IMG/VR virus record: IMGVR_UViG_2718218305_000004
Length of the DNA stretch: 49,695 nt
Direction: 5' to 3' (one strand)
Source of the DNA: a virus
Lineage: Duplodnaviria > Heunggongvirae > Uroviricota > Caudoviricetes
Shown: positions 1-6,000 of the stretch, piece after piece
Numbering within the stretch: position 1 is the first letter of the stretch
How the letters are laid out: each line of letters starts with the position of its first letter
Position numbers: made by a program

Positions 1-3000
1 TCAGAGTCTGGCTCTATGGGGCATGTATGGGACACTCTCCGTCAACTGCTTATTGAGTAGTTCTATTTGCCCGATATTGTTATCTTTCATCCATGCTCCG
101 TAAACGTTGAATACCATTTGTGCATTTGCATGGCCCATTTGGTTTGCTATGAAGCTTGGATTCGCTCCTGCCGATAATGCCCAGCAGGCATAAGTATGCC
201 TAGACTGATAGGCTTTTCTGTGCCGCAGTCCTGCTCGCCTTAATGCAGATGCCCAGGAATCTCTGATGGAATCTGCTTTATAGTGGTGACCGACTTGCTG
301 GCATTTTTTTACCAGTTGCGGATTAAAAACAAACGTGCATTCATGGCGTGCGGTGCGACCGAACTCCCGAAGCTTGACGTCAATTTGATACTGAGGGCCA
401 AGTCTTGTTATTTCAGCCTGGCTTTTCAGGGCATCAACAGCTGGTTGAACAAGATGAATAACACGATCAGTTCCCGCTTCTGTTTTTGGTAGAGTGAACT
501 CCCCGAGTTTTGTATAATTACGACGGATAGTCATTGTTTTAGCTTTTAAATCAATATCCTCCCAGGCGAGAGATATTAGCTCACCGTGACGAATGCCTGT
601 GTATACTGCTAAGGACCACAGGTTTTTTGTTTGTTGATGGTGACAGGCATCAATAAAACGAATAAATTCGTCACGTGTGAGCGGATCTGGTTCTGTTCTG
701 GATCTCTTTAATGGTGTCAGGCCGTTAAATGGGTTTGACACGATATAGCCGTTATCAGCCGCAAATTGAAACATTCCTGCAATTGTCGTCATGTAGTAAT
801 TAACCGTAACTACTGACCTCCCTTTAATCGGCGTTGTTTTTCCGTTAGAAAGATTATGATACCCGGTCAATAAATCTTTCCTGATAAACAGTAAATCTTC
901 CTTTGTTACCGACGAAGCAAGACGTTTTTCCCCTATGCGAGGAAGCATGTTTCTCACCACGGATTGATACCGACTGAATGCATTACTTCCTATCTCAATT
1001 TTCTTAAGGTCCAACCATTTTTCCGAAAGTGCCTTAACGGTTATCTCTCTTTTTCCCAGACCAAAGTGTTTCAGGTTAGGGGAATTAGGGAACTGCGCGG
1101 CGTAGTCGAAACTCCCCATTCTGATTGCAAAACAAACAGAAGTGCGAAGCTCACCAGCGATCTTCCGGTTTTTGGCGGTGTCAGGAACACCGAGGTTTTC
1201 TCTGACACGTTTGCCATTATAGTGAAACCATATACGGAGTGATCCTCCATGGTTTTCAACGCCTGTCGGGTATGATGCGTTACTCATAAAACCTCCCAGA
1301 CGTCCAGGAGCATTAACAGGTTAACCGGAACTTGCATTTTTGGCACCTGGTTGTTTCTGGTTTTCGATCCATCGCATAATTTCTTCGATGTTGTACAGGC
1401 ATTCACTGTAATGCCCCGGATCACCTTCTACAGCGTAATGGCGGTATTCTTTTCCCTGCATCCATGACTTTCTTCTGGCTCGCTCGATGGTGCCAGGCTT
1501 TAGCCCTGTTGATGCAATGAGGACTCTCTCCGTACACCATTTGCTGGGGGTTATCTGATAGATGATTGTCTGCATGCCAACCTCATAAAACTTTCATCCA
1601 CGGCAGTGGCACCACACTTCAAACATTCGCTTCACATCTTCTGTACAACACGGTGTTGTTTATGCAGCGAACAATTTTTACCGGGTAACCGGCACTGTCG
1701 GTATACAGTTGTCCCTGATTAATCAGAGCGAACATTTTTTCTCCTGCTCTCTGAATAGTGAGAACTTCAGAGCCGTATGTTTGTAGCGGGTTCAATGCTG
1801 ATAATTTCTGCTGAGATAAGCATCCCGGCAAGCCAGAGTTCCCCGGACAGGTCTTCATCCTGGCATATCAGTTCGCCAATATTAATGGTGGCCATGATAT
1901 CCGTTTTCCCTGTGCGCTCATCCAGGACTTCTTCATAAGGCAGCGTTGCGTACAGGCTTTCAATAGCGCAATTGATAACATCCAGTCCGGTCAGATTGCC
2001 GCCGACAGTAACTTCGAATGTTTCGCGGTATTCCCATAGTCCGAAAGTTAATCGAACGGTTTGTTTTGCCATGCGTCCGCACGACGTCAGATTCGGGTCA
2101 TAGTTCATTATTTGCGGTTGAGTATTCTGGTTGTTCATCTGATTTTCCATTAACCCGGCGGTTTGCCGGGCGTGTAAGTTATTTAATCTGGATAAATGGT
2201 GTATTGGCACCACTGGTCATGTATTGCGGCAGTGTACCGTTCCACTTGTTGATGGCTTCCAGCTCCATGACGCCAGGGTTCTGGCGCAGAGCTTCGCCGC
2301 GTAAACGAATGGCATCGGCTTCTGCCAGGGCTTTTGTTCGAATGGCATCAGCCTGTCCGGCAGCTTCTGCACGCAGCATGTTGGCCTCCGCTTCACGTTG
2401 CTTGACTTCCTGTTCGCGCTGCAGGGTTTTCTGGTTTGCCGTGACTTTGGCGTTAATGCTGTCGATAACGGTTGGCGGGTATTCCGGTTTACCTACATAA
2501 GAGAGGCTCATTACCTGAACGCCGATGGGGGTCATCTCTTCCTGAATGTCTTTAAGTGCGGCATCCAGTAGTTCAGACTTGCCGCCGTCGATAAATTTGT
2601 CGGTGGTCATTTTGCTGGCCAGTCGATTGAGTGCGTCGGCGATCTTCTGGCGCAGGTCAGTGGCGGTAATGTCATCCACGCCTTTGCGGTAGGTCTGAAA
2701 CACCGTGGTAACTTTGGATGGATCAACTTTGTAGGCAACACCGATGTGATAGCCGATGGTTGTGCCGTCACTCATCTGGAAGCTGAACGGCTCATCGTAG
2801 GTCTTCATTTGTTTGAAGGTTGGGAAGATGTAAACTTCAGTATTCCAGCCAGTCCAGTAGCGACCAACACCGACCACCTCACCGACGCCTTTATCGTCGC
2901 CCAGTTTATTTACTTTGATGCCAACATTACCGGGTTCAACGCGATCGCAGCCGACAAGGCCAATGGTCGGCAGAACAATGGCTAAAGCAAAAATAATTTT

Positions 3001-6000
3001 TTTCATTTTTTATCCTTAGTGAAAGAAAGACCCTTGTAAATGGCATAAATGCAGGGCGGGGTCAGAAACGCCAGTGCAAAGCCAGAAGTAACTGCTATCG
3101 TATCCTTCATGGATATAAGGAACGGAACGAGTAATCCGTAAATGCATGCGATAATTGCCAGTAAAATTACTATTGTGAAATACAGTCTCATTGGTATGTG
3201 GTATCCCGATATTTTTAACTGACAGACAGCGCAATAAAGAGAATAATGATTTCTGTTATTGTCAGTACTGTGGCAAGGATTAAAAGCAGTTTTACTCTGC
3301 TTAATTCACGGTTGTTTTTCATATAAATGGTTAGTAAAAAACGGAAGAATTATATTCTTCTTAATATTTAATGTGTCACTGGCCTTCTGGCATACCATGA
3401 GTATTCAGGTCGTTAATCATTTCATCCAGAAGGAGTTCAAGCCCTTCTCGCCCCATGTCTGAAACAATGAAACCTTTATCTGGGTATGTAATGAGCATTT
3501 TCTGATAAAGAAACAGCGCTCTACCCATTCCTTCTGCCTCGCCGTATTTTTGAATTAAATTCCATTCAATATACTGCTGTAAGGCAAACCGAATGGGGCC
3601 GGGATATATCGTCATAACCCCATGCTTCCCGTTATATATTACGGCGCGATCTGTTGTTCCGTGTTCATTCGGGACATCAATTGTGCCGTTCTTGTCTTCT
3701 TCTTCGTTGATGAATGTCGTCACATACAACCATCGCCACTGGGCAACCTTCATCTCAACCGGAAGTTTTCCCAGTAATCCTGCTTCGTCAGCTTGCGCGA
3801 GACACTGAAGGATACGTAAACCTCGCACATTAGGAGTATCGAATTCTCCAGCATCCAGACGGCGTATGGCGTCGTGATAATCAATAGTCATACTGCCTGT
3901 TTGTATACCATTGGCTGTTGCTTCAGCCTGGAATTCAGCGTATTGCATGAAATTTATTCCTCATCTTCATCTGCTGGTGCAATAACGTCATATCCTGCCT
4001 TTTCTGCAATAAACAGGAATGTTGAAAGATTTCTACAAATTCATCGTCATGAACATGACGAATTAATATTACTTTCCCGTTTTTGATGGTCAGCAATACT
4101 CTGGTTTGTTCGTGTTCTGCTGTTTTCTGATGCATTATTATCTCCCGTATGCTTTACGCAGAAACAAGCAGGCAATATGCATGTGATTTTTCCCGTGTTG
4201 TGCAATAAGGCAGGCTGTTTTGTGTGATGCCTTATGTTTTATAAAAGTCATAATAAAACCTCCTGTGGATTAAGTGTGTGATAATCCCCGGCGATTAAGC
4301 CGTAATATAGTATCTGGAGATGACTTGTTCTATTTAACTGGATAGTTCTTTTTCAGCTGCTGCTTCAGCATAGCAACGTGCAAATTCAAGAACTTCATCA
4401 CCTGTTCTTTTTATTGCGTCGTTGTCTGACATTTGTAATACGATAACTGCGCATAATAAATTATGGATATTGTTTGCAAAGGAATCCGGTGCCAGGCATA
4501 AGCCTTCATACTTATCATGGATATTGCCAGTCATTGTTGCTGCTCCTTTGCTTCTGATTTTCCCGTTAACAACCACATCAGGTCACAATTAAGCGCACTG
4601 GCCAGTGGTACTATATGATCAGCAGGAACTTCACAGATGCCGCATTCCCAGTCGTTTATGGGGTCACTGTAGGTATGAATCATGCGGGCAAGATCAGATT
4701 CGGTTAATCCCAGCTTTGTACGGGCGCTTTTGATGCGTGCGCCAATACTTTCCGCATGGACTTCAGTCGTATTTACACGAATAGCTGACTCGCTGTTTTT
4801 TTCACTTAGTAGAGAAAGCGGATCGCATCCCAGGACGTTTGCCAGGGGGATAAGCATGCTGATGGTTGGCTCGAACTCTCCACTCTCCCATTGCAGAATA
4901 ATCTCTTCGTCAAGATCGAGTAGTCTGGCTAGTTCGGTAGTCGTCAAGCCGCAGGCTTCACGTTTGGTGCGTATGCAGGCTATCTTGTTGCCTGATCGGA
5001 TAGAATGTTGTTGTTTTGTCGATGCGATCGCTAAAGCATATTCATGAGTAAATTCTAGCACATCAAACCCAACCTCTTTTAATCGCGTATCATCTAGGAG
5101 GTTGAAGGTGCGAACAGCACTGAGCAGGTTTGCGATGGTTAATGCAAAAGAATCGAGATCTAAATCATCACATAAAACCTTGTTGTAAGTATTGAGGCTA
5201 CATGTTTTTGGTGTTGTTTGTAAGGCTTCCATATCATCACCATGCAATTCTAAGTTGAAGTTAATCAATATATAATTGATGGTGAGATATTATGTGTCAG
5301 GAAAACGACTGTCAATTAAAAATTGATAAACTTGATTTTTTTGTGATGGATGACCAATAATTTAATTTAAAATCAATAACTAACCAAATCTGTTGATATT
5401 GAATGGTACAGATGAGATTACTTTTGACTGGATATAGAGCAGCGCCATTCCCTCTTTTTCGATGCTCCATGGCTGATAGTTGGGATTGTCTGATAAGACC
5501 ATGATCTTGCTTCCAATTTTTTGAAGTCGTTTGACGTAACATTCGCCATCAAAGCAAAATGCATAAATGCCATCGCCGTCAAAGTAAGTTACTGTTTTAT
5601 CTAAAAACAGTAAGTCTCCCGGGGAGATTGTTGGGGCCATGCTGTCCCCTCTGGCGTTACCGATTTCTATGTTCTTGAATGCTCTGTTACCGACCAGGCG
5701 GCGGGCATATTCAGGATCAAGTTCTATTGAGCGTACTACATCAATTAGATCTCCCCGTACATGAGTTCCGTCGCCGCAACTGAATTCAACATCCAGTACA
5801 TTGAACACAACGCTGTCTTCTCTTGTATGGTGTTTTTCAGCTGAAGAGAATGTCGATGAGGCATCTTCACCCAAAAACCAGGATTGTGGATAACCACTAA
5901 TTACTGATAGCTGTGCAAGTTTATCGCTTCTGGGAAACGTCTTTCCTGTAGTCCAGTATTGTACTGATTGCGCGCTTACACCCAGCTTACGGGCTAGTTC

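Follow-up and report, generated by a model that had tools for sequence, protein, structure and literature searches.

The window analysed here is a stretch of 49,695 nucleotides from a caudoviricete genome (IMG/VR record IMGVR_UViG_2718218305_000004), and the subject of this work is a pair of overlapping genes within it that encode an SPFH/Band-7 lipoprotein and a small two-helix protein predicted to lie in the membrane, referred to below as the partner. Scaffolds of the SPFH type (HflK/C, prohibitins, stomatins, and flotillins) occur in all domains of life, where they organise membranes and control membrane proteolysis. The SPFH gene and the partner gene form a conserved, mobile two-gene phage module, the minimal unit of which spans about 1.0 kb (window 2179–3191). 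All the genes under study are encoded on the minus strand, at the coordinates given in this text. Window positions 1300–4200 match the Stx2a-converting phage Stx2_EH1846 (LC567840) at 100% identity and phage phiP27 at about 90%, and judged by this identity the window is a Stx2a-converting, phiP27-like phage. The module consists of the following two genes (ORF, open reading frame; AF2, AlphaFold2).

2179–3006, minus strand: SPFH/Band-7 lipoprotein gene, 275 aa (Pfam Band_7, PHROG_200, AF2 model, Foldseek)
3003–3191, minus strand: gene of the predicted two-helix inner-membrane partner, 62 aa (ORF overlap, hydrophobic segments, PHROG_1130, upstream homologues)

Domain, fold, and anchor of the SPFH protein

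An earlier, sequence-only reading of this DNA had described a 275-aa SPFH lipoprotein with the lipobox LVGC and a coiled-coil tail, and had named a profile search for the SPFH domain as the check to be made. That search matched the protein to Pfam Band_7 (PF01145) with E=1.2e-30 and 107.3 bits against a cutoff of 23.6, over residues 22–208 and profile positions 2–176 of 176. A second match, to PHROG_200 'lipoprotein', covers residues 1–274 (E=1.2e-112). The protein is a genuine member of the SPFH/Band 7 superfamily and of PHROG_200. Three parts can be told apart along its length: the SPFH domain at about residues 22–177, a long helix at 178–242 (65 residues), and a C-terminal motif, KW(N/D)G-LP, within which K254, W255, G257, and P260 are invariant across the family alignment.

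The N-terminus, MKKIIFALAIVLPTIGLVGC followed by DR, is a signal peptide with a canonical LVGC lipobox, in which Cys20 precedes an Asp at position +2. The lipoprotein features of the earlier description were thus borne out, with Cys20 as the lipobox residue and helix 178–242 as the tail. The membrane anchor is a lipid, as marked by the lipobox, instead of the usual helix or hairpin, and the protein has no transmembrane helix. Among the scorable representatives of the family, 61 of 66 carry a Cys within 8 residues of the conserved core. In E. coli, Asp at position +2 of a lipoprotein is an inner-membrane retention signal. The Sec/lipoprotein signal and Asp+2 predict that the SPFH protein sits on the inner membrane facing the periplasm, and the natural fusions described below are consistent with this orientation.

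An AF2 monomer model, built on a 30-sequence alignment and with a mean pLDDT of 75, places strands at residues 17–94 and 163–175, helices at 96–158, and the single long helix at 178–242. When this model was compared with the PDB by Foldseek, the matches were prohibitin, HflK/C, erlin, stomatin, flotillin, major vault protein, and QmcA, at E values of 1e-13 to 1e-7 and 13–20% identity, with no clear subfamily preference. Probability was 1.00 to prohibitin, HflK/C, erlin, stomatin, and flotillin across 240–300 columns. Going by the model, the best full-length matches are cage-forming SPFH proteins.

The sequence-only reading had also called the protein a paralog of HflK/HflC. This wording proved too strong, given that the HflC equivalog (TIGR01932) scored 22.8 bits against a cutoff of 134.4 and the HflK equivalog (TIGR01933) 19.6 against 159.4, and that Foldseek favoured no subfamily. 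Membership in HflC, HflK, or FloT was dropped, all NCBIfam matches being below threshold. The best sequence match in the PDB was HflK, at E=1.4e-3, and the sequence comparisons indicate that the protein is only remotely related to HflK/HflC. Several GenBank records name the product of the SPFH gene 'serine protease'; no domain found supports this label, which probably descends from the old naming of HflA/HflC as a 'protease'.

The partner and its coupling to the SPFH gene

The partner carries two hydrophobic helices and a basic C-terminus, with a predicted N-in/C-in topology, and it matches PHROG_1130 'membrane protein' over residues 1–61 (E=7.3e-23). The short turn between the helices, predicted to be periplasmic, is conserved (P-F-L-I-S-M-K-D-T), and partner homologues share the turn motif P-x-[LM]-[IV]-S-x-[KDN]-[DS]-[TS]. 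A Pfam scan of the partner gave no match at E≤0.01, and scanning five partner variants to E=1 returned noise only (Holin_SPP1, E=0.17; RseC_MucC, E=0.055). A holin or NfeD identity was therefore dropped, the scans of the partner and four variants having yielded nothing but noise. The partner gene is unannotated in LC567840, in sister Stx-phage records, and in the E. coli phage-plasmid NZ_CP013030 (positions 3776–4012 of locus L013).

The stop codon of the partner gene overlaps the SPFH start codon by ATGA, and an AAGGA Shine-Dalgarno sequence lies 6 nt upstream of the SPFH ATG. These signals indicate that the SPFH gene is translationally coupled to the gene of a two-helix membrane protein, as the sequence-only reading had proposed. 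Given the domain, the lipobox, and the coupled 62-aa ORF, the observation is real and does not reflect a chance ORF.

Linkage of the two genes was examined on 80 contigs from IMG/VR, each of which carries a close homologue of the SPFH protein. The partner is present in 78 of them, in 60 with the 4-nt overlap, and one of the two contigs that lack it has no upstream sequence. The SPFH relatives in this set are at least 90% identical, and the counts hence serve as linkage statistics and not as a measure of diversity; a further homologue search that started from the alignment also yielded close relatives only. Ten lineages with SPFH homologues at 23–92% identity were inspected as well; in nine of them, including the Gram-positive Kayvirus (MbpV-MbpS), the SPFH gene is immediately preceded by an ORF for a small membrane protein, which overlaps or abuts it. 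A recognisable homologue of the partner occupies this position, usually with an overlap, in P2-like P88/UTI89, N4-like Pylas, Seunavirus EspYZU15, Burkholderia phiBt, and the phage-plasmid.

The two genes differ in how they vary. The part that encodes the mature SPFH protein (window 2212–2958) is about 90% identical in DNA among lambdoid-type, P2-like, and phage-plasmid carriers, whereas the signal-peptide region together with the partner gene (window 2959–3191) is replaced between carrier types. Synonymous and non-synonymous counts in the partner, for example 9 to 12, reveal moderate constraint only. Many of the E. coli matches are confined to query positions 34–780, which correspond to the mature SPFH protein; since the partner also diverges, the 5' part of the cassette is evidently shuffled. 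This pattern suggests that recombination took place within the 5'-terminal part of the SPFH gene.

Natural partner-SPFH fusions

A profile search for the SPFH family across 1.84 billion cluster representatives outlined a discrete subfamily, with 383 clusters (formed at 50% identity) reaching E≤1e-30 and no more than 4416 reaching E≤1e-3. Of the best 150 representatives, 20 (about 13%) have an N-terminal extension of 55–100 residues (P0137, P0142, P0143, and P0156 are among them). Seventeen of these 20 extensions were judged by reading to be partner hairpins, with two helices and the same turn motif. In the fused proteins the partner hairpin leads through a basic linker into the former signal peptide, which has kept the lipobox Cys. 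Three contigs carry the fusion P0137 (locus L095, 2643–3641), which lies there in an early region of phage-like character with a PDDEXK exonuclease gene as its neighbour; a homologue search with the fusion protein placed it as a singleton among unfused relatives. Such independent natural fusions argue for a physical 1:1 partnership between the partner and the SPFH protein. Read as sequences, they are also consistent with a topology in which the partner is N-in/C-in and the SPFH domain lies outside the cytoplasm.

Distribution and gene context

With the SPFH protein as query, tblastn gave matches in 833 of the 50,697 phage records, and in 738 of these the match spans at least 80% of the protein. 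Virulent carriers of the family include Kayvirus (phage K ORF28, which is MbpS), Vequintavirinae, Schitoviridae, Ounavirinae, Bruynoghevirus, and jumbo phages, as well as N4-like Pylas, Seunavirus, and Felix-O1-like phages; in the virulent phages of Enterobacterales the same two-gene module is present. Remoter matches were obtained in phiCbK-like, crAss-like, and Lak phages and in haloarchaeal viruses. The window-type partner was detectable in 67 phage records, exclusively from Enterobacterales phages. Among complete E. coli genomes, 535 of 5426 (about 10%) hold a nucleotide-level homologue, at 418 chromosomal and 199 plasmid places.

The module recurs in P2-like, N4-like, Seunavirus, and Burkholderia phages and in a 98-kb E. 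coli phage-plasmid. In the P2-like phages it lies within the early operon, between cox and a replication gene, and in the N4-like Pylas it follows the RNA polymerase II genes. The sequence-only reading had set the module next to the integrase and excisionase genes (int and xis). It does adjoin them in the window, yet the adjacency is incidental because the module sits elsewhere in P2-like and N4-like phages. In Kayvirus (Staphylococcus phage A3R, positions 1154–2253 of locus L009), the homologous pair mbpV-mbpS is found in the lysis region, between the endolysin gene lysK and the transglycosylase gene tgl. The upstream partner MbpV has one helix and a long charged tail; it has been likened to holins, with the speculation that MbpS helps to export Tgl (PMC7150955). 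A canonical terminator follows the SPFH gene in five other lineages and a hairpin in three others.

The leftward gene string and neighbouring features

The remaining features around the module are as follows.

1–1575, minus strand: integrase and excisionase genes (int 1–1287; xis 1321–1575), from Pfam Phage_integrase, Arm-DNA-bind_2, and DUF1233 excisionase and from the LC567840 annotation
1619–1735, minus strand: C-terminally truncated DUF4222 remnant, 38 aa (Pfam DUF4222, E=4.5e-9)
1767–2138, minus strand: DUF5406 gene, 123 aa (Pfam DUF5406, E=4e-22; PHROG_3409)
2153–2171, minus strand: G+C-rich hairpin without a T-run, perhaps the 3' boundary of the module or an element that stabilises its RNA (RNAfold −15.1 kcal/mol, z=−3.06)
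3215–3322, minus strand: optional 35-aa single-helix ORF of uncertain coding status (intact in 32 of 80 loci)
3323–3379, minus strand: intergenic stretch holding the palindrome GAAGAATATAATTCTTC, a candidate weak promoter or operator (read from the sequence)

An unbroken string of minus-strand genes runs from a PL-like promoter (5315–5287) to int. In the order of transcription, the promoter is followed by a helix-turn-helix (HTH) regulator, several small ORFs, a 190-aa PHROG_1515 protein, the 35-aa ORF, the 62-aa partner ORF, the SPFH gene, DUF5406, the DUF4222 remnant, xis, and int. The integrase and excisionase genes are accordingly downstream of the module, at the distal end of the string that holds it. 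G+C content is 50–54% in the module and 36–47% in its flanks.

Two small ORFs downstream of the SPFH gene, which the sequence-only reading had left without identity, correspond to DUF5406 and to the truncated DUF4222 remnant, of which a full-length 80-aa version exists in E. coli ETEC4085. A 79-aa ORF at 1619–1858 is an in-frame upstream extension of the remnant that overlaps DUF5406, and it is probably not a gene. Neither DUF5406 nor the DUF4222 remnant was found beside the module in the other phage types examined (P2-like, N4-like, and others), and from this context both appear to be unrelated neighbours outside the module.

The 35-aa ORF had been put forward as a possible transmembrane peptide upstream of the pair. 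It is present, and its coding is possible, but it is not part of the core: no Shine-Dalgarno sequence precedes it, and it is intact, with conservative changes, in 32 of the 80 related loci. No family match was found in Pfam or PHROG, and its codon-position variability (9/4/8) is not diagnostic of coding. Homology to many of the E. coli segments breaks off near window 3195, shortly before the start of the 62-aa gene. On these sequence features the 35-aa ORF would at best be an optional element outside the core module.

A scan for consensus promoters and terminators found nothing flanking the module, and total counts were no higher than in shuffled sequences. Ahead of the 35-aa ORF, the 53-nt intergenic stretch holds the palindrome, a perfect TATAAT (3354–3349), and a GTGACA (3379–3374) 19 nt upstream of the latter; the scan missed this pair because its spacer limit was 16–18. 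The region 3323–3379 is highly variable among relatives. On the other side, the hairpin at 2153–2171 is directly 3' of the SPFH stop codon, 15 nt before the DUF5406 start (2138) and 3 nt before an alternative ATG at 2150.

Several genes further along were noted in passing. The first gene after the PL-like promoter (4531–5268, minus strand) encodes a 245-aa protein with HTH_3 in its middle and N- and C-terminal parts without assignment. At the cro position, an ORF on the plus strand (6202–6459) matches Pfam YdaS_toxin (E=2.6e-9), and to the right of cro, at the position of lambda cII, there are two regulators of the Rha/Ash type. A search of the annotated early genes, which left out the ORFs unannotated in LC567840, found no Phage_CII or Lambda_CIII domain. 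The Q antiterminator gene (12729–13124) is followed by a DNA methylase gene (13689–14747, plus strand) and the Stx A-subunit gene with its RIP domain (15130–16089, plus strand).

A model of the module in the infected cell

We favour a joint model in which an inner-membrane SPFH lipoprotein cage and its two-helix partner act in the infected cell, and we would put its probability at roughly 55%. In this model the lipoprotein would be exported, lipidated, and kept in the inner membrane facing the periplasm, a retention that relies on the Asp+2 rule. By analogy with every solved full-length SPFH protein, its subunits would then assemble by way of the long C-terminal helix, giving a ring or cage on the periplasmic side of the membrane. 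Through translational coupling the partner would be made in a ratio of about 1:1 with the SPFH protein, and its helices may lie in the membrane at the rim of the cage or inside it, with the conserved turn contacting the SPFH1 domain. In the infected cell, the assembly could then enclose a client protein or a patch of membrane.

The module would act during early lytic development and not as a lysogeny switch of the lambda type. Early expression in the lytic programme is suggested by the leftward early gene string in the window and by the early positions of the module in P2-like and N4-like phages. The sequence-only reading had raised a part in the lysis-lysogeny decision. As a general function this did not hold up, with the same family and module in strictly virulent phages and no CII or CIII among the annotated early genes; the occurrence of the SPFH family in so many virulent phages makes a lysogeny-specific switch unlikely. 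The lysogeny/FtsH interpretation is possible, though not favoured as the general function, and FtsH modulation or exclusion during lytic growth is possible too.

The scaffold is conserved from the phages of Enterobacterales to those of Staphylococcus, and this makes a conserved host target or membrane property a likelier object than specific rival phages. Candidate host functions are, for example, the turnover of membrane proteins by FtsH and the control of premature membrane permeabilisation. More speculatively, a periplasmic cage with an exchangeable two-helix adaptor might capture some conserved membrane machine of the host, most plausibly FtsH; we regard this version as possible but rather improbable. 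If true, it would be a general host-takeover device across temperate and virulent phages and across Gram-negative and Gram-positive hosts, one without described precedent in phage biology.

Several observations weigh against the joint model. Oligomerisation into a cage is inferred from relatives that are only 13–20% identical, the confidence of the AF2 model is low over the C-terminal 25 residues, and a monomer model cannot show a ring. In many family members outside Enterobacterales the residue at +2 is Ser or Thr, which by E. coli rules routes a lipoprotein to the outer membrane. The Erwinia MM7 lineage has no membrane ORF upstream of its SPFH gene. Furthermore, the partner is poorly conserved, with 23% identity between the window and P88, while the mature SPFH proteins of the two are 92% identical; the partner may therefore be an exchangeable specificity element or cargo and not a structural rim. 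Lastly, the perfect TATAAT upstream of the 35-aa ORF makes expression from the prophage conceivable.

Alternative explanations

The SPFH protein could be an FtsH modulator resembling HflK/C, with a periplasmic ring that traps or shields FtsH hexamers or competes with HflKC. Altered turnover of FtsH substrates would follow, affecting regulators in temperate phages and membrane and stress proteins in all phages. HflK/C and prohibitin, which both partner FtsH-type AAA proteases, are among the top fold matches; the predicted orientation, periplasmic and anchored in the inner membrane, is like that of HflK/C, and HflC/HflK are the best, though weak, matches among curated families and solved structures. 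Moreover, all bacteria have FtsH, in keeping with the broad conservation of SPFH, and the SPFH gene lies in the leftward early operon, as does cIII in lambda, where it encodes an FtsH inhibitor. These points are offset by HflC and HflK equivalog scores far under their cutoffs, by the lack of a transmembrane helix, by a single SPFH gene in place of a K/C pair, and by an invariant KW(N/D)G-LP motif that falls outside the HflK-aligned stretch. In addition, no CII or CIII homologue was detected among the annotated early genes, and remote SPFH homologues occur in haloarchaeal viruses, whose hosts to our knowledge have no FtsH. We regard this explanation as possible but rather improbable. The idea of a link to HflKC and CII has been proposed for the SPFH protein of a Pseudomonas satellite phage (PMC4936722).

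Another proposal is a device for lysis timing or membrane integrity, in which the partner would be holin-like or antiholin-like and the SPFH protein would control its clustering or stabilise the energised membrane. The partner indeed has the size, the two-helix N-in/C-in topology, and the charged C-terminus of class II holins, and a universal need would be consistent with its occurrence in virulent as well as temperate phages, whether the host is Gram-negative or Gram-positive. In Kayvirus the mbpV-mbpS pair is located in the lysis region and MbpV resembles holins (PMC7150955), but the module is away from the lysis genes in the window and in P2-like, N4-like, and Seunavirus phages. With an operon position that is early and not late, and no significant match of the partner to a holin family (the best being Holin_SPP1, E=0.17), we consider a lysis device unlikely.

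Superinfection exclusion or anti-phage defence would have the membrane complex stop the DNA of secondary phages from crossing the inner membrane, whether of a lysogen or of an infected cell. A periplasm-facing lipoprotein with a small membrane protein resembles T5 Llp, TP-J34 Ltp, T4 Imm/Sp, and P22 SieA, and the module shares features expected of such a system: a location in an accessory region beside int/xis, a G+C content above that of the flanks, movement among unrelated phages and phage-plasmids, and a partner that diverges much faster than the scaffold, as an arms-race specificity element should. The scaffold itself, however, is unusually conserved from Enterobacterales to Staphylococcus, unlike typical exclusion proteins. 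The simple scan found no consensus promoter or terminator flanking the module, the place in an early lytic operon argues against prophage expression, PADLOC gave no family match, and the exclusion literature searched holds no report of it. Exclusion is therefore a doubtful explanation of the module.

Any triacylated lipoprotein activates TLR2, so activation of this receptor would not be specific to the module. It is very improbable that the lipoprotein serves lysogenic conversion or virulence in the animal host, for example by leaving the cell in vesicles and acting as a TLR2 agonist. In favour, the window is a Shiga-toxin phage of a pathogen, and PM0222, a Pasteurella multocida prophage protein that may or may not belong to this subfamily, is reported to be released with outer-membrane vesicles, to stimulate TLR1/2 signalling, and to add to virulence in mice (PMC9872710). 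Against it, virulent phages and phages of environmental bacteria and archaea carry the family in abundance, and no sign of expression in the prophage state was seen. The remaining probability falls to something not yet considered, that is, a client or purpose other than FtsH, lysis and membrane integrity, exclusion, or virulence.

Significance

Why so many phages carry an SPFH scaffold is a question to which the literature searched offered no answer. The sequence-only reading had held that function is not evident from the sequence, and this stands: we found no functional study of phage SPFH proteins in that literature, where their function in phages is called 'poorly understood' (PMC7760394) and the role of an SPFH protein unclear in a phage paper (PMC13239085). 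The gene family is already catalogued, yet it is mis-annotated as 'serine protease', and the partner gene is often missed. No published description of the near-constant pairing with a non-NfeD two-helix partner, of the natural fusions, or of the spread over virulent and temperate phages was found in the literature searched. At minimum, the present analysis corrects a widespread annotation and adds a missed gene. The family is present in Shiga-toxin phages, prophages of uropathogenic E. coli, phage-plasmids, and therapeutic genera (Kayvirus, N4-like, and Seunavirus). The pairing with the partner, the occasional fusion, and the place in the early operon offer a concrete handle for experiments; should the client be FtsH or the holin system, the module would represent a new phage route to the control of host membrane physiology.

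Comparison with known systems

Among phage proteins that act on the same compartment, T5 Llp, TP-J34 Ltp, T4 Imm/Sp, P22 SieA, and HK97 gp15 act at the cytoplasmic membrane or in the periplasm. They are like the module in being small early or accessory membrane proteins or lipoproteins and in their accessory-region location, but they have no sequence or fold relationship to it, and none is an SPFH protein; the SPFH family, for its part, is not known to cause exclusion. A scan of six proteins of the region against PADLOC-DB 2.0 returned no defence family at E≤0.1. Lambda CIII is comparable by functional analogy only, as a gene of the leftward early operon that possibly affects FtsH; unlike the module, it is a 54-aa cytoplasmic or peripheral peptide, and there is no homology between them. 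The Pasteurella multocida protein PM0222 (Pmorf0222), an HflK/C-like SPFH protein in a lambda-like prophage (PMC9872710), shares with the window protein its kind and its prophage origin, whereas its reported role lies in host inflammation and virulence and not in phage biology.

The HflK/HflC-FtsH complex (PDB 7VHP, 7WI3, 9CZ2) resembles the phage protein in its SPFH domain and long helix, in top-tier fold similarity, in the predicted periplasmic face of the inner membrane, and in a sequence similarity that is weak but the best found. HflK/HflC also have a historical link to phage lysogeny. The differences are an identity of only 16–20%, a lipid anchor where HflK/C span the membrane with an N-terminal transmembrane helix, and the presence in the phage region of just one SPFH gene, with a dedicated 62-aa two-helix partner and no K/C pair.

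The SPFH-NfeD operons (QmcA-YbbJ, PDB 8Z5G; YqiJ-YqiK; archaeal stomatin-NfeD) are similar in that an SPFH gene is tightly linked to, and co-transcribed with, a small membrane-protein gene, the two genes are occasionally fused, and QmcA is a fold match of the phage SPFH protein. In contrast, the phage partner has no NfeD (PF01957) or OB-fold domain, and the phage anchor is a lipid. For the phage protein the SPFH domain is predicted to face the periplasm, whereas QmcA has its SPFH domain in the cytoplasm.

The family that contains the window protein is the PHROG_200 'lipoprotein / putative serine protease' family, whose named members are those of phiP27, P88 gp12, Pylas_029, and phage K ORF28 (MbpS, with MbpV). 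These are 23–92% identical to the window SPFH protein and have the same gene-pair arrangement. With no essential difference from them, the window protein is one more member of this family.

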